From: an uncultured Elusimicrobia bacterium
Lineage (GTDB): Bacteria > Elusimicrobiota > Elusimicrobia > 2-02-FULL-39-32
NCBI GenBank assembly: GCA_964523525.1
Contig: CAZFYO010000003.1
Coordinates: 164,147-228,146, forward strand
DNA length: 64,000 bases
Direction of reading: 5' to 3'
The translations under genes were made by a program, and so were the position numbers. Under the pieces are notes generated by a model that saw only the letters and a list, made by a program, of their open reading frames with translations, was not told the origin of the DNA and ran no database searches. The number at the start of each line of letters is the position of its first letter. Within the stretch, counting starts at the first letter, position 1. Below are positions 23,180-49,000 of the stretch, one piece after another.

Positions 23180-25054
23180 ATGACCGCCCAAAGCCGGGTC
23201 TGGCTCGCGCTCGCCGCCTGCATGGCCCTGTCCTTCCTGATCTACGCACCCTCCATCAAGGCCCCGTTTTTTTTCGACGACGAAACGAATTTTATCGATA
23301 ATCCGGATATCCGGAAGCTGGAGAATCTGAAAACCCGGCTGGTGTTCAAGATGGAAAAGATGGCGCAGAACACCAACGTCCCCACGCGCGCCATAACGTT
23401 CCTGACGTTCACCCTGGAATATGCCCTCTGGGGTAAAAATCCGTCCGGCTACAGGGTCGTCAACATCGCCCTGCACGGCCTGGCGGCATTCCTGCTTTTC
23501 CTCCTGCTAAGGGAAATTCTGGCGCGATGGAATCTGGGCGAATACCTCTTTGGCGTTGCGCTCGCCGGGGCCATGCTTTTTTGCGCCCATCCGATGCAGG
23601 GCGACGCGGTCGCCTACATCAGCAACCGGTCCGACGTGCTCGCGGCCCTGTTTTCCCTGCTGGCGCTGGTCCTCTTTTCGCGCGCGGGTCCGGACCGCGG
23701 CCGGGCGGCGGCCCGTCTCGTCTTCGCGAACTTCGCATTTGCGGCGGCGATTCTTTCCAAAGAGACCGCCGCGACATTCCCTCTGATTCTCCTGGGCTAC
23801 GATTATTTCATCGCCGCGAACAGGGACGGCGCGGCGCTGCGGAATCGCTGGCGGCGCCATGCCCCGTTTTGGGGAACCCTCGCTCTCTATATGATTTATC
23901 GGCGTGCGCTGATGGGCGACTTGATGTACCAATGGGCCCTGCAGGAAGATTCCTGGACGTCAATGGAGTATCTGTCAATGCAGGTGATGGCCATTCCGAA
24001 ATATCTGCGCCTGCTTTTGGCGCCCGTCGGACAATGCATCGACCATATTCTGCTGCCTCCCGATTCCTGGCTGGAGCCCCGGATGCTTGTTGCGTTCGCC
24101 GCCTGGGCCGCGATTCTGGCGCTGGCCGCGTTCCTAATCCGTGGGACGTGGAAAGCAAAATCCACCGCCGCGCTTTTTTCATCCGCCTGTTTTGGGATGT
24201 TGTGGTTTTTCGCGGGGCTGGCACCCAGCTCCAGCGTCTTTCCCATTTTTGACGCTATGGTGGAGCGCCGTGTCTATTGGCCTTCCGGCGGCTGGGTCCT
24301 GGGCGTGCTGGCCTTTTACGCCTGGCTTTTCGACGCGACGGAAAATGGTCCGGTCAATGGCGCGAACCATTCCAAAAAAATAATCGTCTTCCTGTCGGTC
24401 CACACCGCGATCCTCGCCCTTTTCACTTTGCACCGCAGCACGCTGTACGGACATCCCGAACGGCTCTGGATAGAGGCCGTCGCCCGCTACCCCGGGAACC
24501 CGCGGGCTTACGTCAATCTGGGGTCCTATATTGAGAAAAAAAATCCGGCGAAAGCCGTTGAGCTCGGCCGTATGGCACTGAGCCTGAACCCGAAATATGC
24601 CGTGGCCCAGAACAATCTGGGCAACGCGCTTTACGCGCTCAATGACGTGGAAGGCGCCGTGGCTTCCTATCAGAAGGCGATTGAGTTGAAGCCCGGATGG
24701 GTCCAGCCCTACATCAACCTGGCCGGCATGCATTACCACGCCCGCCGGCTGAAGGAAGCCGAGGCAATGTACTTGAAAGCGCTGGCGCTCGAAACAGGGT
24801 ACGCGCTGGTCTATAACAATCTCGGCTCCATCTATTTTGAGAGGGGCGAAACGGAGATGGCGGTGGATTTTTATAACAAGGCGATCGAGACCGACGCCGG
24901 TTACGGGTTGGCCTATTACAATCTGGCTCTGGTTCTGGTTGCCAGGAAGCAATTCGACCTCGCGCTGAAAGCCATGGTGTCCGCACGTGCTCTGTTGCCG
25001 GACAACCCGGCCGTTGAGAACAATTTGCGCGCGCTGCAGGCCATGAAGCCGTGA
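23180..25054 (+). CDS. TMTC/PMT-like GT-C glycosyltransferase (DUF1736-type polytopic N-domain) with C-terminal TPR repeats, paralog 1
   Basis: ~10 TM helices in the N-terminal 420 aa. The loop-1 acidic motif PFFFDDETNFIDNPDI is the DD/DE motif of GT-C PMT/TMTC/ArnT-type enzymes. The C-terminal ~200 aa contains >=5 TPR units (AxxxLGxALxxxGxxxEAxxxYxKAxEL-type). Confidence 0.7.
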   Translation: MTAQSRVWLALAACMALSFLIYAPSIKAPFFFDDETNFIDNPDIRKLENLKTRLVFKMEKMAQNTNVPTRAITFLTFTLEYALWGKNPSGYRVVNIALHGLAAFLLFLLLREILARWNLGEYLFGVALAGAMLFCAHPMQGDAVAYISNRSDVLAALFSLLALVLFSRAGPDRGRAAARLVFANFAFAAAILSKETAATFPLILLGYDYFIAANRDGAALRNRWRRHAPFWGTLALYMIYRRALMGDLMYQWALQEDSWTSMEYLSMQVMAIPKYLRLLLAPVGQCIDHILLPPDSWLEPRMLVAFAAWAAILALAAFLIRGTWKAKSTAALFSSACFGMLWFFAGLAPSSSVFPIFDAMVERRVYWPSGGWVLGVLAFYAWLFDATENGPVNGANHSKKIIVFLSVHTAILALFTLHRSTLYGHPERLWIEAVARYPGNPRAYVNLGSYIEKKNPAKAVELGRMALSLNPKYAVAQNNLGNALYALNDVEGAVASYQKAIELKPGWVQPYINLAGMHYHARRLKEAEAMYLKALALETGYALVYNNLGSIYFERGETEMAVDFYNKAIETDAGYGLAYYNLALVLVARKQFDLALKAMVSARALLPDNPAVENNLRALQAMKP

Positions 25055-26976
25055 CTCGCGGCCCGAATCAAAACCCGAATCAGAACCCGGCTTCCGCGTC
25101 CGGGCGCGCCGGCGGCGTCTCGTTTCTAATGGCGTTCTTCTGCCTGGTCATCCCCATTCTTTTGTACAGCCCCTCACTGCGCGGGCCATTCGTCTTTGAC
25201 GACTTCTCGAATATCGTCGACAATCGCGATATCCGCAGCCCTGACCGCATCGGGATCGGCCTCCTCAATACGCATTTGATCGTAAAAAACCGACAAGCTC
25301 CGACGCGCCCCGTCACGTCCTTGACCTTCGCTCTCAATTACGTCTGGAACGGCTTGAATCCGTTTGGGTACCGCCTATTCAACATACTCGTTCATTCAGC
25401 TAACACGCTTCTCGTGTTTTTGATGACCCTTATGATTCTCCGACGCCTCCAGGATGCCGCGGTGAAGGAATCCCTGGCGTTCGCCATCGCTCTGATATTC
25501 TGCGTCCACCCGCTCCAGACCGAAGCGGTGGCGTACATCAGCCACCGCAGCGACAGCATGGCCACATTTTTTTATCTCCTATCCATGCTCTCGTTCTTTG
25601 CAGGAAGGGACAGGCGCTGGCCATATTCGGTTCTGCCGGCGGCATTTTTCTTCATTCTCGCAGCGGGTTCCAAGGAGTGGACTTACGCCGCGCTTCCCGC
25701 GGCACTGCTTCTGATCGACGTTCTCGTCTTCAGCCGTTCGGAGAAACTGCGGATGTGGCGGCACGCCCCCATCTGGATTCTGGCGGTCATTCTGATCGCC
25801 TCCCGGAAATATCTGACCGGTCGATGGGGCTTTTTGGGGCCTGATCTCGACCGGATTTGGCCGGCCCTCACGTACGCGGGAGTACAGTCGTATGTCTGGT
25901 TGAAATATGCGGCCCTCTGGTTCCTGCCGCTGTGGCAAACGTTTGATCATTATCTGGTCCCAAACGCGCCGGGGTTGGCCCGCAAGATATTTGCGTCCGC
26001 TGCGTTGTGGTCCGCCGCGATCGTTGGAGCGGGATATTGGATCCACAAACTGGGATGGAAAGAATTTTCCGTGAGGGCCGCGCAGTCGGCCTCAGACCCC
26101 CGGCGCAGGCTCCTATGGCTTGGTCTCGGCATGGCCGCGATATTGATCGCTCCCACCTCCAGCATTATTCCGACGTACGAGGCCATGGCGGAGCGCCGCG
26201 TTTACCTTGCGGTCTGGAGCGGCTCTCTGGCCTGGGTTGCCTTTCTGGCGGGACTGATCAAGAATGGGGGGACGTTGAAAGCGGCCCTCGCGGTTCACAT
26301 CATGCTGCTGGCCGCGTTGACGTGGCGCCGAACCGAACTGTACCGATACCCGGAAAAACTATGGGAGGAGGCGATTGAGCGGTACCCTGAAAATGCGGAC
26401 GCGCACCTGAACCTGGGGGTGGTCGAAATGAAAAACGGCCGTCCCGACAAGGCCCTCCACAACTGGCTTCACGCGGTCGAGCTCCGTAAACTGCGAAACC
26501 CTCAGGCGTTCAACAACATAGGAGAAATTTACTTCCAGCGGGGCGAGATACGCAAGGCCCTGGAATATTTCAAGGAGGCCGCCCGGCAGGACCCCCAATT
26601 ACACTACGCCTGGCGCAACATGGGAGACGCCTTCTATGAGCTGGGGGAGGACGCCGCCGCCGAGGAAAGCTATCACCGCGCCCTCGCTCTGGTCCCGGAC
26701 GAACCCGAGCTCTACAACAATCTCGGCCTGGTTTTGGAACGGCGGAAAAATTTTCCCGGGGCCGAAAAAGCCTATCAAAAGGCGATGGAACTGGACCCCG
26801 ATTTTGCGCCGGCCCACGCGCACCTGGCCGAACTTTATGTTCAAACCGAACGGCTCCCGGAGGCGCTGCGCCGGTACGCGCAGTGGCAGGTTTTGGAGCC
26901 CGACAACCCCGAAATTCCCTCCAAAATCGCCCTGCTCCGCCGCTGGATGTCGGATCGGGCTCGCGGCAAAAAATAG
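25051..26976 (+). CDS. TMTC/PMT-like GT-C glycosyltransferase with C-terminal TPR repeats, paralog 2
   Basis: Same architecture as the upstream gene: polytopic N-domain with PFVFDDFSNIVDNRDI and C-terminal TPRs (NLGVVEMKNGRPDKALHNWLHAVEL...NNLGLVLERRKNFPGAEKAYQKAMELDP). Start overlaps the stop of paralog 1 (ATGA). Confidence 0.7.
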   Translation: MTRGPNQNPNQNPASASGRAGGVSFLMAFFCLVIPILLYSPSLRGPFVFDDFSNIVDNRDIRSPDRIGIGLLNTHLIVKNRQAPTRPVTSLTFALNYVWNGLNPFGYRLFNILVHSANTLLVFLMTLMILRRLQDAAVKESLAFAIALIFCVHPLQTEAVAYISHRSDSMATFFYLLSMLSFFAGRDRRWPYSVLPAAFFFILAAGSKEWTYAALPAALLLIDVLVFSRSEKLRMWRHAPIWILAVILIASRKYLTGRWGFLGPDLDRIWPALTYAGVQSYVWLKYAALWFLPLWQTFDHYLVPNAPGLARKIFASAALWSAAIVGAGYWIHKLGWKEFSVRAAQSASDPRRRLLWLGLGMAAILIAPTSSIIPTYEAMAERRVYLAVWSGSLAWVAFLAGLIKNGGTLKAALAVHIMLLAALTWRRTELYRYPEKLWEEAIERYPENADAHLNLGVVEMKNGRPDKALHNWLHAVELRKLRNPQAFNNIGEIYFQRGEIRKALEYFKEAARQDPQLHYAWRNMGDAFYELGEDAAAEESYHRALALVPDEPELYNNLGLVLERRKNFPGAEKAYQKAMELDPDFAPAHAHLAELYVQTERLPEALRRYAQWQVLEPDNPEIPSKIALLRRWMSDRARGKK

Positions 26977-27114: not shown

Positions 27115-27147
27115 TCTGCCATAGTTCACTGATCTTTCATTGGCTTA

Positions 27148-27268
27148 CACGACAATAGCACACTCCAAGTAATTGGAGGCCGCAAAGCCCTCGCCGCCAG
27201 GCGGGGCCCTCTTAACGTGAAGAGGGTACGGGCCCTGCAAAGCGCAGGGCGGCCGGGTTGCCGAAGCA
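27148..27268 (+). ncRNA. Candidate cyclic-di-GMP-I (GEMM) riboswitch aptamer in the 5' leader of the giant-gene operon
   Basis: Hairpin CUCCA-aguaau-UGGAG followed by CCGCAAAGCC (27181-27190; Vc2 has ACGCAAAGCC). Long-range pairing GCCGCC (27193-27198) / GGCGGC (27248-27253) encloses the internal hairpins CCCUCUU-aacgug-AAGAGGG. 3' element GCGGCCGGGUUGCCGAAG (27248-27266; Vc2 has GCGGGGUUACCGA). A second GCAAAGC lies at 27237-27243. The match is to the GEMM consensus as remembered, not computed. Confidence 0.4.
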
Positions 27269-28064: not shown

Positions 28065-31000
28065 ATGAGCATCGCAAGCGTGAAGAAATTCTTCAGAACC
28101 AGCCTCGCCCTCCTCGGAGCGGCGAGCCTGGTCTTGCTTGCGCGCACCACCTGGACCGCCGACACCTACTGGCCGAACGCCAACATCGGCACCGACCCCG
28201 AGCTGTGGCACGGTGAGACGGCGTTCTCGCTCAATGGTCAGACCAACCTCTTCGATTTCGCGAACTCCACAACTCGGCAGATGGCCGTATCGTTCACGGC
28301 GCCGACGCTCTCCACGATGACCCTGCAGGAAGTCCTGCTCCCCTGGTCTCAGTCCAACACGAACCAGACCCAGACCGTGCGCGTCCGTGTCGCAGACGAT
28401 GATAACGGCGATCCGAGCGGCGTGTACATCGCGACCGGAACCCTGGTGATCGTGAACGAACCCAACACCGGAAAATGGCGCAGTTTTGATATGACGGGCG
28501 GCGGCCCCGCGCCGACGCTGTCCGCCGGGTCCGTTTACCATCTCGTCATCGATAAAACAGTGGGAGGCCGTAATACGGTACAGGGTATTCCGGTCCGCAG
28601 ATCCATTGCCACTGCGCTCAATGATCCTTCGGCATTGAAGCGCGTGGTTTCCACGGCTACCGCGGCGACGCCGAACCTGGCCATGAACGTCAGCACGCGC
28701 GGCGCCACCAACGAAGCCTGGATGCCTCAGGACGCGGAACCCACCTTCCTGGTGAAGTTCGGCGTCACGCTTCCCAACCTGTTCTATTGGGGCAACCCCT
28801 ATCCCAGTCTCAGCGATAACACCAACAACGGCGCCCCCGCTGGACAGTTCAACGACTACTCACCCCGCATCAACCAGGCGTTGTACAAGTCCATCCTGCT
28901 GAGGTCTTCGGCCGGCGGGGGAACGAAAAAATTAAGCCGCCTCAACGTGCTGGTCGGCAAGGACACCACCACGCCCGCGGAGTCCCTGAAGATTTCGATT
29001 GAACGGACCGATACCTACGAGATGGTCGTTCCCACTGTTACCTTCGTACGCGGAACGGATTTTGCATCGGTGGACGAAGTCGTGTGGAAAACCATCAATC
29101 TGGCCAGCAACTCCGTAGTCTTAGCGGAAGGCGTCCCCTACCGCATCAAATTTTTCTCGCCAAATTCGGGAAATAATTTGGGTTACCGGCTCTACATTCA
29201 TGCGGCTTGCGATGCCGGCGGCGTGGAATGTAACCTGGACACGGTCTACTCGGAGGCCACGTTCGATGGAGACAATACCGCGATCGAAGAGTCGTCGGAC
29301 AGCGGCGTCACCTGGACACCGAATTACGGCGCCGACATAAACTTCCAGATGCGGTTCGACAACGACGTTCCGCTGATGGCCATCACCCAGCCGGCGCAGA
29401 ACGACGAATGGAACTCGATTCCCGTGATTTCCGGAACCGCTGAGGACCAGGACAAGACTGATCACGCTCTGAGCTCGCGCACCGTGGAAGTTCATATCAA
29501 GAACATTACTAACGGTTCCAATGAAGAGTGGAGCGGGACGGCCTGGGCCCCGCCGACCGGAGCCGATACGGACAACTGGAATTCCACGGGAGCCATATCC
29601 TATACCAACGGATTCAATACCCACAATTGGGACTACCGCATCCCAGCGGCAAACTGGACGCCCCAGGCCAAATACAATGTGCGCGCCCGCGCCTACGACG
29701 CGGTGCGAAACGTCTCCACCGTTTACTCCACAACTTTCACCTACAGCCCGTATCGAGGCTCACCGGAAGCGCCCGATTCCCTCCTGACCAGCATCGTGGA
29801 TAAATCGACGGTTGCAGTGGTCAATGGACTGATCGGTACGGCGAACGACGTCAATCCTCTGACTGATATTTTGGGCAACGGATTCACGGGCGTTTCCAAC
29901 GTCAAAGTGTACGTCAAGGACACGGATTCCAACGTCTGGTGGAACAGCGGCGCGTCCACCTTCTCCTCTACCGTGGAAACGTCGCTGTTCGCGTCCTTCA
30001 ATTCGCAAAATCCCGGCGGAAATTACGACTGGCAGATCACCGCGATCGGAAACCTGAATTTCATTCATGGCAAGCGGTACGCCGTCTATACGCGCGCCAT
30101 CGATAACAGCAACGTCTCGATAGCGACCGGCGTGGTGGAAAACCTGATCAGCACAATCACGTTCCGCGTGGACCGCGCAACTCCGACCGCGGCGATCACC
30201 CAGCCGGCGCATCAGGGTTCCGCTCCCTCGGCCATTATCATCAGCGGTACCGCCGTGGACTCTGTCTCCGGAGTTCAGCGGGTGGAGTATATGATCCAGG
30301 ACCTGAGCGGATCCAACCCCGGTTTCTACCTTAATAGCGCGGGCAACGGCTGGTCGATTTCCGAACCGTCCGATTGGCCCGACGCCGACATGGGCGTGCA
30401 GTTTTCCACCTGGTCCGCCGCTCCCGGAACGACCTTGACCAGCGGCGATTACGTGGTTCGCGCGCGCGTCTACGACATCGTGGGCAACAACACGGCCGGG
30501 ACTTACTCGCTTACGGTTACATCCATCACTGTAACGGTCGACAATACCCCGCCCACGTCCGCCGTGACAGTTCCGACGCACACTTACGTGGGCGCATTCA
30601 CGGCGATCAGCGGAACCGCCAACGATAATGCGAACCTCAACACCGGCGCCCAGATCAACCTCACGGTCTATCAGTCAACTTCTGGAAATTTCTGGTATGA
30701 CCCGGACGGCGATGGGGCCATCGTCGGCCGGTGGAGAAACGTTCTTTCTTCCATTACAATTACCAGCGTTCCGAATTCTCCGAGCTGGAACTGGACCTAT
30801 ACTCCTCCCGCGCACATGTTCCGGACGGGCGGCACCTACGTTTTATGCTCGACGGCCACCGACACGTCCACCAACCGCCAGACCGGCGGGAACGTGGTCT
30901 ATACGGTACAGTACGACACGCAGACTCCCGTCGCCCAATTCCAGAAGCCCGAGTTCGGGCTGGGCTGGATCCGGAGCCTGCCGACCATCTCCGGAACAAG

Positions 31001-34000
31001 CTGGGACGCTTTCGACGGCCTGGCGTTTTCGAGCATCAGCGCCGTGGACGTGGAGATCCGCGAAGACCCCACGATTACCGGCGACTATTGGAACAATACG
31101 GGCCAATCCTACGGCGGTTCGCAGCTTTGGAATACGGCAACCCTCGGCGCGCAGAACGGGGGCGCCCGTAGCTGGAGCCTGACCGGAACGGTGGAGAACG
31201 CGTTCCGCCTCCTGGGCGCGACCTACACGATTACAATCCGGGCTCAGGACAACGCTCCCATCCCGTCCAGCGGATACAGCAAAAACCTGCAGAACCCGAC
31301 CTCGTCCTATGTTTTTCTGTGGGACGCGGAACGTCCGACGACGACAATTACCAGCCCGACTTTATCGCGCCATAACGACGCGAGCTGGTCATCCCTTTAC
31401 AGCGTCACGAATTCGAGCGCCATCCAGGGTTACGCGATAGACGGGTCCAACCGCTCGGGAATCTCCGCGGTGCAAATGCGGATCGACCGCAACAATCTGA
31501 CGGCTTCTCATTGGGACTTCGCCACCCAGGTCTGGACCGCCGGTCTTTCTTCGGATTCCGACTGGGTCAGCATCCCCGTCGTTCGCTACGCGTCTTCCTC
31601 CACCTGGAGCTACGCGGCGCTCAAATCCTCCGCACTGGCGGATACCGGCAGTTATTCCATCTATGTGCGCTCTCGCGACAACGCCCTGGCATTCGACAAT
31701 AACGCCGCCAATAACTTCAACTGGAACTGGCAGAATTCCAGCACCACTTTCATTTACGACGTCACAACGCCGGTATCGGTCTCCACTCAGCCGACCACTT
31801 CGCTGACATTCATCAACAGCTGGGACCAGGCCGTCGGCATCCGAGGCACCGCTTCCGATCCCAACAGCGGGGTCATCAACCAGGTGAACGTCGGCGTCCG
31901 GCGCAACAGCGACATGAAATGGTGGAACACCTCCAACCAGGACTTTACCGACTCGCCGGGACCCACCCTGGTCTCCACCAACATCGTGGCGGGCGCGCCC
32001 TATCAGTTCTGGTACATCCCTTTCCGTCAGAATGACGTGTCGGTGCGCAACGAGCTCACGCACAACACATCCTACGCGATCCTGATCCAGGCGGTGGACA
32101 GCCTGGCGCAGTCGGAGTCGCTGGGGAAAGCCTATACCACGTTCTATTTCGACATCGCCAAGCCGACGGCGGCCGTGTCCTGGCCGGACTCGAACGGAGG
32201 CCTGAACAACCGCAGCTACAACTCCGTGACCAGCGCCTCGGGTACAATCGCCGATAACATCCCGGTGACCGTCGGCATTGTGGAACCCCTGGACGCGAGC
32301 CTCATCGAGGTCCAGATTACCACGGCCGGCAGCGACGGCACTTACTTCTATCAGGGGCCGAACGTGGCGCAGGGATCGCGCTGGAGCAAGACGCAGAAGT
32401 GGCTTTCGAACTCGGACGGCCAGGTGAACATAACCTATAATTCAACGCTTGGGACGTGGCAGTATGCGGAAACGGGGTGCAACGGATCGCTCTGCGTCGG
32501 GGACGACAGTGTTTGGCAGAACGGCACCCAGTACGGCATCCGCGCCCGCGCCACCGACAAAGCGGGGAACGTCCAGACCGCTTTCACCAATTTCCAAACG
32601 ACCTTCACTTTTGATAACTCCGGTCCTTCGGCCGTGAGCGTCACCAACCCGGCTCCGGCGCACACGCACCGCCGCAGCCTGACCACGATTTCCGGTACCG
32701 CGACCGACAACGGCGGCGTATCGTCCATGGATTTCCGGGTCTGCATGACCAGCGATACGAACACCTGCTGGGACGGATCGAGATGGGCGGTGAACGCCAG
32801 CACCTACAATCAGGCGTATTTTGACGGAACCGCCTGGGGGGCTCCCATCAGCGTGAGTGCCTGGCAGGACGGATACCAGTACTCCATCATCCCGCGGGCG
32901 CGCGACGGCGTGCTGCCCGCCGGCAACGCCACGGTGGGAACGGCCAAAACGTTCCGCTGGGACTCCACCGTCCCCACGTCCGGGATCCAGTTCCCCGTTC
33001 CGAACCCGCCGGACAACTATTACAAGAGCTCGCAGATGGGCTCCATCGTGGGTACCGCGGACGATACGTCGCCCGGCACCCTGAGCAAAGTTGAACTCGC
33101 GATCACCCGTCTCACCCTCGGCGGCGCCGCGGAAGTCGAGTTTGATTACACGAACCGCTTTGACGACAGCCAGCGTTGGAACTCCGCCGCGCCCGGAACG
33201 CCTCTCTACTTCAATGCGGCCGGCAATCCCACTCTGGCGAGCTGGATCTACAGCATCGACTTTTCCACCTGGTTTGAAACAGGCCGCTCTTACCAGATTC
33301 GCGTCCGCGCGGAAGACGCGGGGCAAAACGTCCTGTCCGGAGGGACGGGCAATCAGTCCATCGTCCGGATGAGCTCGTTCACCATCGATAACACGGCGCC
33401 GCTTTCCGCCAGCACCTCTCCCGTGGCCAACGACATCGTTTCCACCCTCGCCGCCATATTCGGGACGGCGAGCGACTCGGGCGGCGCGGACATTTCCACG
33501 GTTTCGATCCACATCCGCCAGACGAACACGGGAACTCGCAGCGCCGCGAACTGGAACGGCTCAGGATTCGTTGAAGGCGCGGACAACGCCTCCAGCTTCG
33601 CGAACTGGTTCATGGTATCCGGCGTGGACGCGGCCACGCATACGTGGCGCTACGCCACGGTGACCGGCACGGAATGGGCCGGCGGCACGGGCGTGAACGA
33701 AGCCTATCAATACCGGGTGGTGTCCCGCGCCGAAGACCGCGCGGGCAATCACGAGGTGAGCCGCACGACCATCACGTTTGTCTACGACGCCCGCAAGCCG
33801 GCCTCCAATTTCACTAATCCTCCTTATAACAACTACTTCACCTCTTACACCCTGACGTATATCTCGGGAACCGCGACGGACCCGGGCGCCAACGGCGTCA
33901 CGGGAATTTTTGTCACCGGTGTGCGGGCGAAAATCCAGAGGATGGACACGGGCGAGTATTGGGATGCCGCGCAGGCGCCCGGCCTGAGATGGCAGACCGC

Positions 34001-37000
34001 GATCACCTCGAACAACGCCTCGGCGGCGGACGGCTCTTTTGACGGAACGTCCAACGAACCCTGGCGTTACGACATCAGCGACGGGGAGTTCTGGGTCAGC
34101 AACACATCCTATACCATCACCAGCGTCGCGCGCGATGCCGCCACGGTTCCGGGACCCAACGTGGAAACCGCGGTTCCTTCGCGGATATTCATTTACGATC
34201 CCGTCCTGCCGGGCGCCACGATCCAGGCGCCGGTCTCGGCGGACCATTACAACCGGCATTCCAAACCCCTGCTGACGATCTCCGGCACGGCGACCGACGC
34301 GGCGCCGGGCTCGATCGACCGCGTGATCGTGAAAATCCAGAGCGGCACGGGCGTCAACTACTGGACAGGATCGGCCTGGGACACGAGCATCACGAGCCTT
34401 ACCGCGACTTTGGGCGCGGGAACCACCAATTGGAATTTCGATATTCCGGGCACGGCCTGGGAGGATGGAAATATTTACAAGGTTTATGCCTACGCCGTGG
34501 ACCGGGCCTCCAACAACATCACGGGCGCGAGCCAGATCGTCAAAACTTTCACGATGGATCTCACGACCCCGACCGCCGTCGTCATCTCGCCCCTGGACGA
34601 CGCATCAAACGGCATCGCCTCCATTCAGGGCATTTCCGGAACCGCTTCGGACCCTGCGCCCGGCCAGATCATGACGGTCGAGTTTCAGATAGAAGAGAAA
34701 GGCGGCGGCTATTCGGAGAGCAGCAGCAAATTTCTGAACTCCGGCAAGACCGCGTTCGACGCGTCCTCCAACACGTTCCACAGCGCGACGTTCCTGACGG
34801 GCAGCACCTGGACGCTGAACACGTCGGTCGTGCCCTGGGGCAACGGGAATTACCGCGTGTACATGCGCGTCACGGACCGCGCCACCAACTACAACACTAA
34901 ACCCGGCGCGGCGGGACCTTTCTCGGCCATGGTCGAGTTCAAATTTGAATCCCAACCGGAGTCGTACATCACATTCCCCGCGCATGACTCCTATAAAAGA
35001 CCCTCGCAGGTCTCGGCCCCCAGCGCCATCTCCGGCACCGCCAAGGACGGCGCGGCGAAAGTGGACGCCAAGCTGGTGGACTGCGGCGACGACTTCGATT
35101 GTACCACCGGCGCCGATAACTACGGCTGGTGGGGCTCGTCCTGGTCCGCCAACGCCACGGGCTACATCACGACGACTTTGGACGGCGTGCCCAGCCCGGA
35201 CACCTGGAATTTCTCTGTGCCGCAGGCTTCCTGGACGGCCTTGGGGCAGTCGCGCAAATACCTGCTGGTTTCGCGCTCCTACCTGGGAATCACCCCGGAG
35301 CACGCGGTCGATCCAAACCCCAGCGGAGCGCAGCGCAACGCCAAGAATTTCGTCGTCGACAACCAAAACCCGACCGTGGGCGTGACGCGGCCCTCCAACA
35401 ACGTGGCGTTCACGAGCGCGGCGCTGACCAGCGTTTCAGGCACCGCGTCCGATGCTTCGCCGGGCGCCCTGGATACGACTTCCGTTAAGTTCCGCATCGT
35501 CCGCTCCTCTGATTCCGCCGAGTGGAACACGGGGTCTCAGGTCTTCGTCAATCCTCCGGGCGACCTGTTCTCGGCCACCAACCTGGGCGGCGGCAACTTC
35601 AGCTTTACGAACGCGGACTTTACCAACAGCCGTCCCTGGGTGGACGGCGTGAACTACGCGATCTATATCCAGGCCAACGATTCCGCCGGCAACCCCGCAG
35701 GCAGCGCGGTCGAAGCCTTCAACACGTTCGTTTATGATATCTCAGTTCCGTCCGCCGCCATCCTGATTCCGGCGGCCAACAATCTCTTTATCCGCCCGCT
35801 TTCGACCATCAACGGCACCGTGATCGACGTGGACCCCGACGTGACGCGCAATGACATCAGCTCGAGCGGCGTTCACGCGGTGCACCTCACCATCCAGTCT
35901 CTTGGACCCAACCAGCCCGGCGACTATTTCGACGGCGCGTCGTTCGGATCGGGCGTTTCAACCCTGACGGCCACTCTGACGGGCAACAACTGGAGCTACA
36001 ACAACGCCGGCCTCTATAATTTCCTGGCCAACGCCAGCAACGCGGGCAACACCTACACGATAAGAACCTGGGCGGTTGACCGCGCCTCGAACGCTTCCAT
36101 TAACAACGCCTCGGTCGGATTCGCTTCCATGACGTTCACGATTGATCCCAGCTCACCGACCATGGCCGTTACATCGCCGGCGGACGGGTCCAAGTACCGC
36201 ACGAATAACGTCCCTCAGATTGTTGGTACCGCGGTTGACTCGCCGACGGGCGCGGGCAAAGCCAGCGCCGGCCTCAAGAACCCCGGGCTTTCCGCGGACG
36301 GCGGCATTATCGTGGAAGTTTCCTATCTGCACGGCGGCAGCACCTATTATTTTGATAACGTCACGCCCTGGACTACGGTCTTTACCACGCGTCAGCCCAC
36401 GACGCAGACGCCCTGGAACCTGACGACCCCGGCACAGGCCGCCTATGACGATGTCATCTCGAACCACGGAGATAAACAGATTCGCGTCCGGGTTCGCGCG
36501 CGCGACGCGGTGCGCCTGTCCGATAACAGCGGCTACGATTCCAACCTCGCCGACTACACCGGATACACCAGCTTCATTATTGACGGAACGCCGCCGGTTT
36601 CGAGCGTGACGACGCCCGCCCCGGGAGCGCTTCTGAACGCTCTGACCTCGATCGCGGGCACGGCGAACGCGGACCTTTCGGGGTTGGCCGGACTGGACGT
36701 GCGGATCGCGACGCCGTCGGCGGCGCCCGCTTCCTGGTGGACGGGCTCGAGTTGGAGCGCGACCGAGTTCTGGGTGCCGGCCACCGTGGACTCGCAGACG
36801 GCCTGGCATTACGATATCTCGGCTTCAATGCTGGTTTCCAGCCGCACCTATCAGTTCGCTTCACGCGCCTACGACGTGGTCGGCAACACCCAGACCGCCA
36901 TCACGGTTTCGAGTTTCACTTTTGACAATGTTCCCGGCGTGGTGGTGAGCACCCTGCCCGTCACGAGCCAATATTACGGCGGCTCCGGCGTTACTCCCTT

Positions 37001-40000
37001 TACGGGTAACTATACGCCGCGTCCGCTCTCCATGATCGCCGGCACCGCCGAAGACGCTTTGGGCGGCGTGCGCCGCGTGGAGCTGGAGATCCGGCAGAGC
37101 AGTGCGGTGCTGTACTACGATGGCACCGGATTCGCGGCGCTTTCATCTTCCTGGAATGTCACGAACCAGGTGACCTACCATACCAGCTCGGCCACATGGC
37201 GAATGGTCAATCTCCCCGCGCTGCACAGCAGCAGCCGTTACCTCCTTCGGGCGAGGATGATCGACAACGCTCTGAATATTTCCAGCGATCCGTCGAACGG
37301 ATCGACCATCGATTTCCTTTATGACACGGCCTACCCCACCAGCACGCTGTTGACGCCGGCCAGCCCCTATATCCGGTCCATCTCGGTGATTTCGGGAACC
37401 GTGCAGGACGAACAGGTCGCCGACCCGAACAACACCACCGGCCGCAACGCCGGGTTTGAGCGGGTCGAAATCGCGATCCAGGAAGTGGGCGGCGGGCTTT
37501 ACTGGGACGGCGCGGGCGGCGGAAGCTTCACCCAGCCCGAGTCGTGGTACGCGGTGGACGGCGGCTTCGTGGTCTCGCAGTCCAGCGTCAACACCTGGTA
37601 TAAAACGACGCTTCCCGCTTTCTCTCCGGGCGAATCCTACTGGGTGCGCAGCCGCGTGATCGACCGCGCGCGCAACGTTTCGCTGGAGCTCGTCACCTCG
37701 ACCTACACGTTCCTTTACGATCCGACGCCCCCGACCGTGACGATCGGATATCCCGAATCGTTCCGCCTGCGCCAGTCGTCCGTTGCGTTCTCGTCCGGCA
37801 CCGCTTCCGATACGGGCGGAGCGGGCCTGAACGTGGTCCAGATGAAACTGCGGTTGAACACCGCGGGCGGATCGGGCGGCACGAACGGCAAGTTCTGGGA
37901 CCCGTCCACGTCCCGCGTCACGCCGGAAAACAACAACAATTTCTCCAAGAACGAGGATGACGATACGGCCTGGTTCAGCGCGAACGGGACTTCCATCTGG
38001 TCCACCGGTTCCTTCGCCGCAACCTGGGTGGATGGATCGTCTTACAGCATCGTGGTCCGGTCGCAGGACCGCGCCGGAAACTATTCCGCGTCTTACGCGA
38101 CCGTCAGCTTTACGATTGATAACGGCTTGCCGAGCTCCTACGTTTCGCTTCCTTCTTCCGCGGTCATCCAAGGCCTGCCGTTGGGCCGCGTTTCCGGAAC
38201 CGCGTCGGATTCCGGAACCGGCGTGGTCAACAGCGTGCAGGTCGCGGTGAAACTTTTGAGCGGCGCGGGAGATATGTGGCTGTCCGGCGGCGGACAGTTC
38301 AACGTGAACCAACTGAACCCGAACTGGCTGGATCAGGCGACCGGCGGCGTCAACTTTACTCCCGGAGCGCCGGCGGTCTGGGACCGGCCGATTCCGGCGG
38401 CGAGCCTGGTCAGCGGCGCTTCCTATTACGTGATCAGCCGCGCGGTGGATGAAGTCGCCAACCAGGAAGGCAGCGGGAACGGCAACATGAACACGATCCG
38501 CGGTTCAACCTTCACGTATGACCGCAACGTCCCGACCGCGACCGTCACGATCCCTCTTCAGCTTTCGTACAACAACGCTTCGCTGCTCCCGCGCATTTCG
38601 GGAACCGCGGCCGATCTCCTGTCGGTGGACAGCTCCGTGAACCGGGTCGCCGGGATCGACCTCTTCATCCAGCAGGCGACCGCGGCGGTTTACTGGACCG
38701 GCGGCGGCTGGTCGGCGACCCCTTCCGGCATTTCGATTTCAACCGCTTCGCTCCCCTACGGCAACACCTGGGGCTACACTCTCAGCGGCGCGGCGCTCCG
38801 CCACAACGCGACCTACTTCATCTGGGTCCGCGCGCAGGACCTGGCCGGCAACGAACAGACTTCATTCGCCGCCGGATCTTCGTCCAAAACGTTCAATTAC
38901 GATATCGGCGCGCCGACTTCGTCCATCCAGGGCCTGACGAACTTCGCTTTCTACCGCAAGGAAACCATCACCACGATTTCGGGAACGGCTGAAGACGAAG
39001 GGGAAATCGGCCGGGTCTTTACCAGCTCCTATTCGATCAAGCAGGCGAGCCCCGAACTCTGGTGGGACGGCAGCACCTTCACCTCTCCGACCGAAACCTT
39101 CTTCGCCCTGAACCACGACGGCTCGGGAATGTGGTCCACCGGCACGATGATCAACCGGTTCGTGGACGGCCGCGAATACGCGGCGCGCTTCATTTCCGTG
39201 GACCGCGCCCAGAACGTGGAAGCCCTTAAGGCCATGACCAGCTTCTATTTCGATATTTCGACGCCCTCGGTCCAGATCCAGATGCCCGTTCACGGCGCCG
39301 GTTACAACACTTTGGGAACCATCTCCGGAACCGCCGGCGACAATTTCATAGGGCTCAACAGCATCCAGAGAGTGGAGTACGCGGTGTTCGTGGACACTGG
39401 CGGCTACTACCGTTCCGGACCGCGCGACTTCGAGGCGACGACTCACTACTACAACCTCGCGACCGCGGACATGGCGAACTGGAGCCAGTGGAGCGCGACC
39501 AACATTCCCTGGTCCACGGGACGCACCTACACTTTGGACGTCCGGGCGCTGGACCGCGCCGGAAACATCCAGGCCAGCTTTACGGTCGGAGTTGATTCGC
39601 TGACGTTCACTTTCGACAGCAGCTCGCCGACCATAGCGATTGAAAGCCCGGCGGACGCTTCCGTGGGAGTGTTCACCACGCCTCGTCTCGGGACGCTCGC
39701 GGCGATTTCCGGAACCGCGGCCGACTTGAACGGCATCCGCCGAGTCGAAGTGCAGATTCAGCAGGGCGCGGCCGGCGACGCGCCGGCGCGTTACTGGAAC
39801 GGCACCGGGTTCAGCACGGTGGGTTCGAGCTGGAACGTGGCCGCGGGGGGAACCAGCTGGAGCTACGCGGTCCCCGGGCTATCGAACGACCGCAGTTACC
39901 GCATCGAAGCGCGCGCGGTAGATAATACCGATTTGGTGACGGTCAACATCTCAAGCGCGGATTTCGTGTTCGACACGTCCAGCCCCACGGCCCACTTCCA

Positions 40001-43000
40001 GTTCCCGGCGGACGGCTCCATCGTCAACGGCTTAACCACGATTTCAGGAACGTCGGTGGACGGAAACACGAACTATCCCTCGACCGTGGGCACGGTCCGC
40101 ATCCTCGTGCGCCAGAACTCCAATATGCGTTGGTGGAACGAGGGCGGCAGCGTGTTTGATTCCCCGGTACCCATCGATATCACTCCGGCGTTCGGCGCTC
40201 CCAACTGGACCTATACCGGAATTTCGACCTCGAACCTCGCGCCGGACACGTCCTACTATGTCACCATCCGGGCGCAGGACCAGTCTTCGCCGGTCAACCT
40301 CACGAACTACTACATCTACAACGCGACCTTCACTTTTGATAACAGCGCGCCCAACGTCGCGATCGGCCAGCCCCAGCATAACTCCTTCTACAACGGCAGC
40401 GGCGTATTTACCGCCAGCGGCACCGCGGCGGACGTGGGACTGCGTCCCAGCATCAGCCGCACGGAAGTCGCGATCGCCTCGGGCACGGGCGAAGACACCT
40501 GGTGGAACGGAACCAATTTCCAGGGCGGCGCGACCTACTATATCGACGTCGCCACGGCCGGGGCGGGAACCTTGAATTGGCAGTATCTCGGCTTCACCTC
40601 CACGGGCATGGCGGTGACGGGGCGCAACTTCCTCATATACGCTCGCGCGATTGACGGAGCCGGCAACGTCAGCGCCGTCGCGGGTCCGCGGCGCTTCACC
40701 TACGACGCGGAACGTCCTACGGCCACCATCGTTTACCCGGCGGTCGCCCCCAACAATAAACTGACCCTTAGCAACATGACGATTTCCGGAACCGCGATGG
40801 ACGCGGTCGCGGGCCTGCGTACGGTGGAGGTGGCCTTCTCGTCCAATGTCGCCAATGACGCCGGCGGCTGGCTCTCGGGCGCCAATACCTTTACCAACAA
40901 CACTCCGATTTATTTCGCGACCGCCGCCTGGACCGGATCGGTCTGGCAGTCCACCGTCGCGCTGGCCGCCCAGGGCGCAATGGTGAACGGCAACAGCTAT
41001 AAAGTGAGCGTGCGCGCGACGGATGTGGGCGGCCTGATGCATATTACTTCGCGTACCATCGTTTACGATTCGGGCGTTCCCGTCAGCGGCACGGACATTC
41101 CCAAGAGCACGGACGCCTACGTGCGCTCGCTCAACACGATTTCGGGAACCGCGGCGGACCTCGCGCCCAACGCGGGAAATATCACCAACGTTCAGGTTGC
41201 GATCTCGACCGCGAGCGGCGGATCGTTCAGCAACTGGAACGGCAGCGCCTGGGACATCGCGGACGAGAACCTGCCTCTGACCTGGACCTGGTTCAGCGCG
41301 ACGCCGGTGAACTCTCCGTTCAACGACAACACGTCCGAGCCGTGGTACTCGACCAACTCCACGCCGACCTGGATCGCGGGCGTGACGTACCGCATCCACG
41401 TGAGCGCCGAAGACGACGGCGGCAACCGGCAGAAAGATCTTGTGGCCAACGTCTTCAAGACCACGTTCACTTTCGATAACATCAACGCGGTCTCCACGAT
41501 CACCGCGCCCGCGGCCCTGCAGTCCACCCAGACCCTCCGCTCGGTGGAAGGCACGATGTCGGACGCCATCAGCGGCATCCAGAAAGTGCAGATCGCCATC
41601 CGCCATCCGGACGACACCAATTTCTGGAACGGCAGCGCCTTTAATCCTTATGATGCGGTCACTTCCTGGAACGACGTGTCCGTCTTCACCTCCAGCTGGA
41701 TCTATACCAACATGCCGCAGTCGTACGTGGACCAGACGGTTTACCGCATATACGTGCGGGCGATTGACCGGGCCAACAACGTGCCGTCGGATCCCAATTT
41801 CAACACGACCGGCGTTCCCGTCCGAATCGACGTGACGTCGCCGACTTCCAGCGCGAACCGCGTGCACACCGGCCTCGGCGCGTTCGTTCTGACTTCGAAT
41901 TCAACGGCCTATATCAGCGTGGATATCTCCAGCATCAGCGGCGTGGCGTCGGACGGCGGCCTGGGATCGGGAGTTTCCGAAGTGAAGATCCGCGTGCGCC
42001 GGTCGGACGGAAACTATCTGAACAGCGTGCAGACGGGCTGGGACACCAACGCCAGCTCGGTGGATTTCCCGTTCTTCCCGACCACCGGCCTCACGGCCTG
42101 GTCGCGCGACCTGCTGAGCGCTAACTTCACGGACGGTTACCGCTATCAGTTGATCACCCGCTCGAAAGATTTCTCGAACCTGCAGAACGTGGAGACGATC
42201 CTGACGACCGCCGCGTTCGTCATTGACCGCACCACGCCCATCGCCTACGTGGCTTCGCCCGCGGGGTCGGGCAACAACCGCTTCTTCAACAATACTCTGG
42301 CCATCATCTCGGGAACCGTTTTTGAAGACAACACGGTGGGGGGCGGCGTCGCCTCAGGCCTGCGCCGCGTGGAAGTCGAGATCCGCGATGTGACGGGCGA
42401 CGCGGTCGGCAACGCCAAGCCCTACTGGGATTTCGAAGTCACCAACGGGACCTGGACCGCGGTCCAGACGTCCACTCCCGTAACGATTGTCTCCGCCGCG
42501 ACCGGCGTTTCCACCTGGACCCTGCCCTCGACGCTCTTCCCCTCCGAGTGGCAGCGCGACATGGGCGACAACCGCCTCTACGAAATCCGCGCCCGCGCCT
42601 ACGATTTTGCCGCGAACACGGACAGCTACCGCGTAAGCCTTTCGACGTTCGATATCACCGCGCCGACAGCGACGGTCCTTTTGCCCAACACCGATCCCTG
42701 GGTTCAGACTCTGCCCACGATCTCCGGTACGGCCACCGATCCCGTTTACGGGCGCATCGGCGTGCGCGGCGCCCGCATCGCCGTGCTGATGATTTCGGGA
42801 CCCAACGCGGGCCAGTGGTGGCAGGACGATTCGCTCGGAGCTCCGGGTTACGTCACTTCGGCGCAACCCATCTACTTTGACTCGGACGGATTCAACGAAG
42901 GATCGGGCGAGTGGGTCTATAAATCGACCCACCCCGCAATCTGGCAGACGAACGAGACTCACCGCATTTATGTGGCCGCAAAGGATAAAGCCGGAAACCT

Positions 43001-46000
43001 GCAATCGCCGACCACGACGCAATATCAATTCCTCTACTCCGCCCCGCCGGCCGCGGTGGGCCTGACGAAGCCGACCAACAACCGGAAGTACATCAGCCTC
43101 ACGTCCCTGGCCGGCACGGCCAACAACACCGTGACGGTGAAAACGGAAGTCCAGATCGAACGCAAGACGGACGGCGCGAAGTGGTCGGTGGCCGGATCCT
43201 CCTGGGGCGTCTACTCTTCCAGCTACAATACTGTCTGCGACAACGCGGCGGGTTGCGGCAACTGGAGCTTCAGCAGCGTGCCGAGCGACTGGCCGGTGCA
43301 CGGATCGTCCTATACGGTCACGATCCGCGGATCAAACTCGATTAACCAGACCAATTCCGAAAGCCGCGATTTTGCCTTTGATACCACTTCGAACGGCGGC
43401 ACCGGAAAACCTGTTTCCGTTTCCACCCAGCCGACAGCTCTCTTCGCCACCAGCATCTTCAACATCGCCGGCACGGCCGCCGACCAGTCCAATCTGGCGG
43501 GCGTGCAGAAGGTGGAAGTCAGCATCCAGCGCTATCGCAACACTTTGACCGAGGAAGACGATCCCAAGTATTACTGGAACGGATCGACCTGGACCAGCGC
43601 GGGTCAGCAGTACCTGAACGCCAGCCTTGTCCAGGCCGCGGCCAACCAGTGGAACTGGGTCTATTCGGTGCAGTTCTCGACCATGTTCGCCGAGGGCTAC
43701 GGCTACAAGATCTGGAGCAAAGTTACGGACAATGCCTATGACACCAACGACAACCTGGTCGGCAACTCGGATGAGCCGAGCCCCGCGGGCTTGTCTTTCA
43801 TCACTTACGACATTCAAAACTCTACGCCGGCCTGGACCAGCCTGAACCACGGGGACGTGCGCTCGGCCTTCTCGGTCACATCGGGCACGGTGCGCGATTC
43901 CGCGAACGCGGGCGCCGACCTCGCGCAGGCGGGCGGCAATCAAATCGGCCAGGTGCAGATCGCCATCAAAGCCGTCGACTCCTTCAACTGGGGCGCGGGC
44001 GCGTTCCTGACGCCGCGCTACTGGGACGGCACATCCTTCCCCGTGGGTGGAACGAACGAAAACTGGCTGCCCACGAACCTCTCGACCGGGGGTATCCTGG
44101 CGGGCGGAATTCTGACCAGCTCCTGGACGTATCCCGCGCAGGGTCTTTCGCTGCCCACGGTCGGAAACGGCGGATTCGTGGACGGCCGTATCTTCACGGT
44201 TTACGTCCGTTCGCTTGATAAGGCCGACAACAACTACACCGCTTTCACCGTCGGCTCGGCGTCGCACACGTTCACGGCCGACGTCACCGCGCCTTCCGCC
44301 CATTTCGTGACGCCCGTCAGCGGCCAGAAACTTCTGGCGCTGAACCCGATTTCCGGAACCGCGGCTGACCCGGTTCCCTCCGCGGGCGTTTCCGTGGCGG
44401 GCATCGGCCGGTCCAGCCTCTCGATCACTTACGTGCAGGGCTTGAACACGTTCTTCTGGACGGGTTCGGCCTGGCAGCAGGTCGTGGCCGATTCCGAGAC
44501 CTGGATCATCGGCGGGTCCACTCCCACGCCTCCTCCGGGCTTCGTGGACCTCTACACCACGAGCGCCACCTGGGAGCGTCCGGGCGTGACCTGGCTGACC
44601 GACAAGCTTTACACGATCCGCGCGCGCGCGAGCGACCGCGCCATACCCGACGCGAATACGGGCGGCATCGCCACCGTGGTCGTGACGATCGATACCACGA
44701 CGCCGGCGTCGGCGGTTGTTGCGCCTTCTGCTTCTCCGATCAGCTCGCTGACGGAAATCACGGGCACGGCCAACGCCGACCTCGCGGGGCTGGCCAACGT
44801 CCATATCACCGTGACGCGGTCGGGCGACAATTTCTACTGGACGGGTTCGAGCTGGTCGGTGAACGGCGCGACGCTGCCCGTGAATTTCGCGGGGACATCG
44901 GGTGATATCACCTGGTCCACGGATTCGCTCGCCACCGCGAACCTCGTGAGCGGAACCACGTACACGATCCGGGCCTACGCCACCGACCTCGTGACGCCCA
45001 GCGCCAACAGCCAGCTGCCGCCGGGACCGGCGAGCTACAAGAACACGCCGTCGTCGTTCAGCTTCCTGTTCGATAATACGCCGCCGTCGATTTCCATCTC
45101 GTCGCCCGTCAGCCAGGGCTTCTACGGGCCCCAGAAGACTTTGGCGAACGTCTCGGGCACGGCTCTGGACGCGCTGGTCGCGACGCGCAAAGTGGAGCTC
45201 GAAATTTACAATTTCAGCCGCGACCGTTACTGGGACGGCCACGGCTTCAACTTCGTTTCTTCCAGCTTCGTGCACCTGACAGGCAACCTGATCAGCTGGA
45301 CCACCGGCATGACCTGGATCACCAACTCGACCTACGGCGTGACGGCCCGCGCCTACGATTCGCTCAATAATTCCTCGACCACGGCCCGCATCAACTTCGT
45401 TTACGATTCCACGGTTCCCGTCGTGAGTCAGGTGATGAACCCCTGGCCGACCACGGGCTACTTCCGCATCCAGTCGCAGCTGAACACGATCTCGGGAACG
45501 GCGCACGACGATTTTGCGGGCATCCCGAACGCCAGCCTGAAGGACATCCGCGTGGCGATCCAGGACGTGGATGACGGCGACGGATTCCCCTGGTGGGACG
45601 GCTCGGCTTTCGCCGCGGCTTCCGCGGATTATCGTATGACCTCGTCCACGATCAGCCTTACGGGCAACGCCCCGTTCAGCTATCCCTTTGGTTCCGACGT
45701 GGTCCCCTCCTGGGCCGCGGGACACAAATACGACGTCCGCGTCCGCGCGACGGACCGTTCGGACAACGTGAGCGCAGTCTATTCCTCAACCTTCACGTTC
45801 GACACTTCTTCGCCCACCGTTTACATTCAGGATCCGAACGTCGCGACCGAGTCGAGCCTGTCCACCCTGTCGGGCACCGCGCTGGACGCCTCGGGCGGGC
45901 CGCAGAGCGGCTCTCTGCGCGTGGTGAAAGTCCGCGTGAAACGCAACTCGGGTACGCCCGGGTTCTGGGACATCAATTCGCAGGGCTTCACCCTGACCAC

Positions 46001-49000
46001 CCTGCTGGACGAAACGACGGGCTGGTTTGACGCCGACACCTCGGACGCTTATGCAAACTGGACCACGACGCAGGCCGCGGGCGCTAACGCTTTCATCAAC
46101 GCTTTCTCTTATTCCGTGCAGGCCATCGCCTATGACCGGGCGGGCTCTTCGTCGCCGATCAGCTTCTCGACGTTCACTTTCGACAGCGGCAAGCCTGCGT
46201 CGTTCGTGAGTTTCCCCGCGGACGGATCGTTCATCCGGTCGCTCAACACGGGCATCACCGGAACCGCGCAGGACCCGGGCGACATCTCGTCCATCACGCA
46301 GATCCGAATCGCGATCAAGCGTTTGGGCGGCGCGTCCGATTCGAACGGCGACCCGAACCGTTACTGGGACGGCGGCGCCACGGTCTTCTCCGCGGCCGGC
46401 AATCCCTATAATTTCAACGGACCGATTTCGCCCACCGGAGGACCGGTCTTCGACTGGATCTACGGCGTTGGCATCCTGCCCACCGCCAAGCTGACGAGCG
46501 GCGTGTCGTACTTCATCACCACGGAAGCCACCGACGCTTCCGGCCAGGTGGAAAACGATTACTATTCCGGCTCCTCGACTTTCACGTTCGACAACTCGTC
46601 GCCCGTCTCGGGCATGGTCCGCCCGCCCCTGGGCGGCATCGTGGTGACCAATCTTCCTTATTACAAGGCGATGACCGTCATTTCCGGAACCGCGGACGAC
46701 TACACGTTCCTGCCTTCCGACCGTCAGCTGAACTCGGGGCTCGTGGGCGGATCGGCCTTCACCCGGATTTCGATCCGGGACCTCACGCAGGGCGCGACCT
46801 ACTGGAACAACGCGAGCAGCATCTTCCAGGACGCGCCGGCCAATATCAGCGAATCCGGTTCGTTCTTTGACGTCACCTTTACGGGAGCCTCCTCCGGGAC
46901 CTGGAGCGCCAATGCCGGGGCGCTCAACAGCCAGATGGTTTCGGGACACACCTATATCGTCAAATCGTCCGCGTCGGACAACATCGGCAACGTCCAGTCC
47001 GGCGTCTACGTCAGCTCGTTCGTGTTCGACGCGAGCTCTCCGACCCTGGCGATCACCGCGCCGGTCGCGTTCCCCGCGGGCCAATACACGGGCCTCGCCC
47101 AGATCAACGGCACCACGCAGGACAATCCCATCGCGCCGCTGTCGCGCGTGGGCATGAGCTCCGTCACCCTGCAGATCCAGGACCTCACGCAGGGAACGAC
47201 TTATTGGAACGGCAACGCGTTCGTCGATTTCCCGACTTCGACGATTAACGTTACGGTTACGGGTCAAGGCACGAACCTCCCCTGGAGCTACGACACGACC
47301 GGCGTTCCCTGGGTGAGCGGCCGCTCTTACCGCATCCACACGCGCGCGGGAGATATGCTCGACAACCGCAGCTCCACCCAGACCGTGGACTTCCGTTTTG
47401 ACTTCACCGCGCCTCAGTCGGCCAGCACGAAGCCCGCCAACGGCGAGGGTTTCAACGCCACCACGAACATCCTGAGCCACCTGGCCGGAACCGCGATCGA
47501 TCTTCCAAATTATTCTTCGGCGCCGTTTAACTCCGGCATCTACAGAGTGCAGATCCAATTGTGGAAGGAAAAATCGGCTCCCAATAACGATGTTTACAAC
47601 GCGGGCACCGATGAAGCCTTCGACCCTGTGCAGGTATCGTCATTCGCGGCCGGCAATTCCCTGCAGTGGATCGACATCTCCAACGTGTCTCCCGTGTTCA
47701 CGTCCTCGCCTTCCTCCATCAACTGGTATTACCCCGTGAGCGACGCGGCGTTCGCCAGCGGCGAAAGCTACCGCCTGAAAGTCCATACGCTGGACTGGCT
47801 GCGGAACGAAGAATCCACTCCGGCGCTGGTGGCCTCCAATTTTGTCCGGTTCTCCAAAGACGCGGCGCCGCCCGTTTCCTACGTGCAGTATCCCGCGGAA
47901 GGGCAGTCCTACATCAACCCGACCGTGATCTCGGGAACCAGCGCCGACGTGACGTCGGCCATCCGCCGCGTGCAGATCCGTATCCGCCGGCAGAACACGC
48001 CGAGCGACCTCTACTGGGAAGGTTCGGCCACGCAGTGGCAGAACAATCCTTCGACCTGGGTGACGACGTCTCACTTCAACGTTTGGGTGACGTCGGTGGA
48101 CTGGCAGTATCAGGACGTGCCGGCGACGTGGCCCAGCGGAACGACGTACTACGTCAACGTGCGCTCTGAAGATACAGCCGACAACGTGGAAACTGCGTTC
48201 ACGACCCGCACGTTCACGATCGATAACGTCGCGCCGCAGGTTTACATCCAGAAACCTCTGAACAATTCCGGTTTCGCCCCGCTCAACCCGCTCAGCACGA
48301 TTTCCGGTACGGCTTCCGACGACCTGGCCGGCGTTAACCGCGTTTACGTCCAGATCAAGGACCTGACGCCGGGCGCCTCCTGGTTCAACGGCACCGACTT
48401 TACGGCCGCCAACCCCCCCGAGATCGGCTCGGTGCAGGCTTCCTGGCTGACGGCCTCGAACACGTTCTGGTATTTCAATACGCCGGTTCCCTATCAGTCG
48501 GGCCGCTACTACCGCGTGGTCGCGAAGGGTTACGATAACGCCGGCAACGCCATGGCGGGAGCGGACTTCGTGGTGGGGCAGACTTCTAACACGTTCTCGT
48601 ACGATTCGTCCAGCGCGACCGCGTACCTCGCGTCGCCGGCCGACAACCGCTCTTACAACGCGGCCACGCTTCCTAATATAACCGGCACCGCGTCCGACGA
48701 CTTCTCGGGAGTGCAGAACGTTTTGCTCCAGGTGCGCGACATCACCCAGGGCACGACCTACTGGAACGGCGTGTCGTTCGTGAATTCGGTGCAGACGATC
48801 GAGCTCGCGGTCCAGGGATCGAGCCAGCCTCTGCCCGCGCTTTCGACCTACAGCTATAACACCGCGTCGCTTGCGTCGGCGATGATCACCGGTCACCGCT
48901 ACACGATCAACGTGCGCGGCCGCGATGTGGCGCAGAACGTGCAGAACGCGTCGCTCTCGCCCACTTACACGGTTCTGTTCGATACCGAGCCGCCGACCGG

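Follow-up and report, generated by a model that had tools for sequence, protein, structure and literature searches.

Two adjacent paralogous genes in the window (the whole stretch of 64,000 nucleotides that was analysed) are predicted to encode inner-membrane GT-C glycosyltransferases of the PMT/ArnT/TMTC branch, and both probably work as periplasm-facing protein O-glycosyltransferases that depend on polyprenyl-phosphate sugars. The most likely activity would be the O-glycosylation of Ser/Thr on exported proteins. This reading starts from the gene pair itself, its homology, fold, motif conservation and architecture and the conservation of the pair in a second organism; the mechanism is drawn by analogy with PMT, ArnT, TMTC and TfpW. 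The preliminary description of this DNA had reported two ORFs of 624 and 641 aa with a 4-nt overlap, and they are present exactly so:

23180..25054, plus strand: paralogue 1, ATG start, 624 aa, GT-C membrane domain and TPR domain
25051..26976, plus strand: paralogue 2, GTG start, 641 aa, GT-C membrane domain and TPR domain

The stop of paralogue 1 and the GTG start of paralogue 2 share the four letters GTGA (25051-25054). Pairwise alignment upheld the proposed paralogy, since the two proteins are 34% identical end to end over 622 columns (E 3e-85), a likeness far above chance. Both are real genes, because the independent contig L007, from a second organism, carries orthologs of both (55% and 59% identity), one behind the other in the same order and again overlapping by 4 nt. 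This contig stops 20 nt past the pair, and no further close relatives of the pair were found in the genome and metagenome collections searched. Tandem pairs of independent origin are present in other lineages, namely L013 (610 and 653 aa, 37% identical, 4-nt overlap) and L005 (484 and 569 aa, 35% identical). Moreover, three single proteins, P0078 (1270 aa), P0079 and P0084, match the N-domain profile twice and may be fused doubles. Upstream of the pair lies an apparently unrelated string of genes (oxidoreductase, hemL, DUF1015, TrpE/PabB-like), with the pair sitting behind hemL and the trpE-like gene at a gap of 9 nt, and therefore no pathway can be read from this context. No gene for a GT2 polyprenyl-phosphate sugar synthase or a flippase was found in the 27 kb upstream of the pair, so that the locus offers no hint of the sugar donor.

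Each protein consists of an N-terminal membrane domain, with a conserved acidic motif in its first loop, and a C-terminal TPR domain:

23180..24448, plus strand: GT-C domain of paralogue 1, residues 1-423, from the helix map, loop charge count and conserved columns
25051..26340, plus strand: GT-C domain of paralogue 2, residues 1-430, 11 predicted TM helices
23276..23281, plus strand: D33-D34 of paralogue 1, the putative catalytic "DD" motif of loop 1, from conservation; aligns with the DUF1736 DD
25198..25203, plus strand: D50-D51 of paralogue 2, the loop-1 "DD" motif
24455..25045, plus strand: TPR domain of paralogue 1, residues 426-622, 12 helices, about six TPR hairpins, predicted periplasmic
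26350..26961, plus strand: TPR domain of paralogue 2, residues 434-637, 12 helices, about six TPR hairpins

Structure models of both paralogues, obtained with high confidence, contain 11 hydrophobic TM helices and 12 TPR helices each, so the earlier count of about ten TM helices has to be corrected. The outward-facing loops EL1-EL5 of the 11-helix domain of paralogue 1 bear the conserved residues, and the short inward loops of both models carry K/R. [quoted passage not shown] The pair shares the multi-spanning GT-C membrane fold common to PMT, ArnT, STT3/PglB and the ALG enzymes, and structure comparison thus recovered the GT-C fold that had been proposed. The closest solved folds for both paralogues are the protein O-mannosyltransferases, with ArnT, AftA, AftB and the ALG enzymes scoring just 3-5 Z units below them. 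The C-terminal TPR region was strongly detected in both proteins (TPR_1 at residues ~435-620, E 6e-24 and 1.4e-30), and the layout claimed to be that of the metazoan TMTCs is found in the predicted arrangement. A TPR domain by itself is no proof of a protein acceptor.

The loop motifs quoted in the preliminary description, PFFFDDETNFIDNPDI and PFVFDDFSNIVDNRDI, were found in the translations, and the acidic motif is indeed conserved among homologs. D33 is invariant (38/38 homologs, 22/22 relatives), D34 is conserved to at least 90% in the 38 homologs and present in 21 of the 22 relatives, and both Asp are invariant in 12 Bacteroidota DUF1736 relatives, where they align with D33-D34. The invariant or nearly invariant residues of paralogue 1 are D33, D34, R70, N95, H137, P138, V144, R150, K194, E195, Y275 and P282, and E362 is found in 17/22 relatives, with Asp in four. 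In the model all of them, E362 included, lie in outward-facing loops or at the membrane edges of these loops, and the R(P), HPxxTE, SKE, Yx6P and ERR motifs are located in predicted periplasmic loops. The DD, H-P, K-E (K194/K208), Yx6P and E-R-R residues are retained in both paralogues and are invariant also in the L007 ortholog of paralogue 2. Paralogue 1 is off-consensus at two motif positions, with R70-A71 for the RP that paralogue 2 keeps and HPMQGD for HPxxTE, i.e. GD for TE. The published TMTC motif set comprises DD and YRP in EL1, HP.HTE or "FAVHPIHT" where TM3 ends, a K of EL3, the DW of EL4 and the Arg of AERV in EL5, and the TMTC DD has been equated with D77/E78 of Pmt1 and D55/E56 of ArnT (PMC7801869).

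In Pfam, the TPRs were the sole matches of the two proteins. Neither matched PF08409 (DUF1736), PF02366 (PMT) or PF13231 (PMT_2) at E <= 10, as full-length protein or as N-domain alone, so the expected direct Pfam assignment did not materialize; the N-domains gave no Pfam, NCBIfam or PDB sequence match, and no MIR domain was listed by Pfam in either paralogue. Among the 22 relatives, five match PF08409 and four PF13231, some carry the source name "protein O-mannosyl-transferase", and no DUF2723-type match was seen. Each of the best 120 matches of the bridging search came from bacteria. An hhalign comparison of the N-domains of the pair and the L007 ortholog with 12 Bacteroidota DUF1736 proteins gave a probability of 99.3% (E 8.3e-21, 383 columns) with the motifs aligned. 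The link of the pair to DUF1736/TMTC is transitive, via relatives and this profile-profile match. A search with the N-domain profile put the family at ~149,000 cluster representatives at 50% identity. Prokaryotic TMTC homologs are already on record in the literature, and the pair belongs to the ordinary members of this very large, recognised family, with nothing new in kind.

The metazoan TMTC1-4 are protein O-mannosyltransferases for cadherins (CAZy GT105; Pfam TMTC_DUF1736). In them, as in the pair, a GT-C domain of ~430 aa that spans the membrane with 11 TM helices comes first, and the TPRs follow at the C-terminus, on the side facing away from the cytoplasm. Motifs in common, apart from the two off-consensus positions of paralogue 1, are the DD and (Y)RP of loop 1, "F.VHP..TE" behind TM3, the K(E) of loop 3 and the Arg that follows Glu in loop 5; the profile-profile match is to bacterial DUF1736 proteins, and the animal TMTCs are likened by their published motifs. 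The pair differs in having no direct PF08409 match, in a loop-4 "DH" in both paralogues for the TMTC "DW", in a carrier that would be of the undecaprenyl and not the dolichyl type, and in the TPRs, which number about six in each window protein and are more numerous in human TMTCs. Another TPR-bearing protein, TMEM260, likewise has a GT-C domain followed by TPRs and is reported to O-mannosylate the repeated Ig-like IPT domains of plexin/MET (PMC10214176), but belongs to a different GT-C family.

The preliminary description had held that bacterial members are usually annotated only as TPR proteins and that their substrates are unknown. The former stands, the annotation being nearly always just "tetratricopeptide repeat protein"; the latter is not quite so, as Pseudomonas aeruginosa TfpW, which has the same architecture, is a pilin O-arabinofuranosyltransferase with 11 TM helices and a periplasmic TPR domain, whose DDX motif is essential and for which ArnT and the TPR domain of OGT served as modelling templates (bioRxiv 10.1101/2020.04.19.049825). 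We found no other characterised bacterial protein of GT-C/TPR architecture in the literature. Compared with the description of TfpW (646 aa), both window proteins have the size, the 11 TM helices, the DDX of a periplasmic loop 1, the Yx6P motif and the periplasmic TPR domain, whereas the second proline is spaced differently (Yx6PFx7P in TfpW, Yx6Px10P in the pair). The tfpW gene adjoins a pilin gene, as two distant homologs of the window proteins, among six neighbourhoods, directly adjoin prepilin-type (N_methyl) genes; the pair itself has no adjacent pilin gene, prepilin-type motifs being absent from all frames of the window, and no D-Araf biosynthesis genes were noted at its locus. The PMTs (GT39: yeast Pmt1/2/4, POMT1/2, actinobacterial Pmt) share the acidic pair of loop 1 and would share the lipid-phosphate sugar mechanism, and PMT dimers fit the paired arrangement of the genes; in contrast to PMTs, the pair has DD instead of DE, no PF02366 match, and a C-terminal TPR array instead of the MIR beta-trefoil in loop 4. 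ArnT (GT83), AftA/B and PglB act on lipid A, arabinan and the Asn of a sequon, respectively, and have structural scores below those of PMTs. None of them is known to have a TPR domain.

By these analogies, a sugar would be loaded on polyprenyl (undecaprenyl) phosphate in the cytoplasm and then flipped to the other side of the membrane, and the periplasmic loops of each 11-TM enzyme, whose N-terminus would be cytoplasmic, would form the active site. Basic loop residues (R70 in EL1, R363/R364 in EL5) might bind the lipid-phosphate, and the acceptor hydroxyl might be held in place and activated by the loop-1 Asp residues (D33/D34, D50/D51), perhaps together with a metal ion. The six-TPR domain on the same periplasmic side would select or hold a protein acceptor emerging from the Sec translocon, and the two enzymes would either differ in acceptor or site preference or act jointly. 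GT2 enzymes include polyprenyl-phosphate sugar synthases, and GT2 genes, some with DUF2304, adjoin the GT-C/TPR gene in 4 of 6 homolog neighbourhoods. These neighbours, of which the window has none, indirectly support a polyprenyl-phosphate-linked donor. A protein acceptor, in preference to a glycan, is suggested by the pilin O-glycosylation of TfpW and by the two homologs beside prepilin-type genes.

The existence of a giant protein downstream was confirmed, in a gene missing from the ORF list because its frame runs off the window:

27147-27265: c-di-GMP-I riboswitch, downstream of the pair and ahead of the giant gene
28065..64000, plus strand: giant secreted repeat protein, at least 11,978 aa, running past the window end; candidate acceptor

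No stop codon interrupts the frame from 27948 up to the end of the window, and it has an ATG at 28065 and the ribosome-binding site AAAGGAG. The protein has a Sec signal peptide, a Ser+Thr content of 22%, only weak Big_13/Big_7 matches in Pfam and two classes of repeats of ~120 aa each. In class A (~62 copies) the Thr of the "ISGTA.D" motif is 94% conserved, and in class B (~24 copies) Ser/Thr columns are conserved at 71-75%. The gene does not directly follow the pair: a 170-nt AT-rich spacer, the riboswitch and a 175-aa ORF intervene. A promoter-like site, TTGACA...TATAAC, was seen by eye in this interval. Behind its riboswitch, the giant gene is probably a transcription unit of its own.

From the duplication, the preliminary description had suggested two specificities, for example for different repeat classes of the giant protein. 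The pair would then be dedicated to this protein, one paralogue per repeat class during its periplasmic passage, which we regard as improbable. The genes are adjacent on the same strand, the signal peptide implies that the protein passes the periplasmic face unfolded, the Ser/Thr content and the exactly two repeat classes with conserved Thr or Ser/Thr columns would suit two enzymes, and in animals, TMTCs glycosylate cadherins on their repeated domains (PMC7001481, PMC11292533). However, the adjacency is known from one genome, the orthologous contig ending just after the pair and no other close relatives having turned up in the collections searched; riboswitch, ORF and by-eye promoter-like site separate the genes, and the pair instead trails hemL and the trpE-like gene. 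A giant repeat protein is absent from all six homolog neighbourhoods, and chance adjacency is plausible given a family of ~149,000 clusters. That one or both paralogues are catalytically dead TPR scaffolds is extremely improbable: paralogue 1 is off-consensus at two positions, but its substitutions are conservative (Asp for Glu) and the DD, H-P, K-E, Yx6P and E-R-R residues are kept throughout.

The paralogues might also form one heteromeric enzyme without separate specificities, like yeast Pmt1-Pmt2 or human POMT1-POMT2, which we consider possible, though on the unlikely side. Through the 4-nt overlap, translation of the two would be coupled and roughly equimolar, the pair is kept with the same GTGA-type overlap in the second organism, independent tandem pairs and perhaps fused doubles exist elsewhere, and the closest solved folds, the PMTs, function as dimers (PMC7759382). 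On the other hand, the retention of all catalytic motifs in both copies equally fits two independent enzymes, TfpW acts alone, and tandem duplicates are expected in a huge multi-copy family without any complex. It is unlikely that the pair modifies a glycan or lipid and not a protein. It would then supply the GT-C member of a three-component system (polyprenyl-phosphate sugar synthase, flippase, GT-C) of the sort that decorates lipid A, the O-antigen, the capsule or some other polymer of the envelope, comparable to GtrC-type enzymes, ArnT or the Aft/Emb arabinosyltransferases. The GT2 and DUF2304 genes beside homologs resemble three-component glycan-modification cassettes (PMC11127046), ArnT is the closest HHpred template for TMTC N-domains (PMC7801869), and the structural scores of ArnT, AftA, AftB and the ALG enzymes are close to those of PMTs. 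Against this, PMTs are the best structural matches of both paralogues, two homologs adjoin pilin genes, no polysaccharide gene cluster lies within the window, and the periplasmic or lumenal TPR array belongs to TMTC and TfpW, enzymes acting on protein Ser/Thr. ArnT and GtrC-type enzymes are not known to have such an array.

The assignment of the pair as probable protein O-glycosyltransferases is, taken alone, chiefly a better annotation, from TPR protein to GT-C glycosyltransferase. The locus moreover yields a concrete hypothesis on acceptors, since a conserved, translationally coupled pair lies beside a Sec-exported, Ser/Thr-rich giant, the sole candidate acceptor at the locus, with adjacency as the basis of the functional tie. 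If the doubtful proposal of a two-enzyme O-glycosylation system for this riboswitch-preceded protein, each paralogue serving one ~120-aa repeat class, were true, the pair would correspond, in a bacterium, to the TMTC-dependent O-mannosylation of cadherin repeats and would provide the first acceptor assigned in the large bacterial TMTC-like family beyond pilins. It would extend the TMTC-cadherin principle, the domain-specific O-glycosylation of repeated adhesion modules, to bacteria and would show that glycoproteins occur among the giant adhesins of bacteria.

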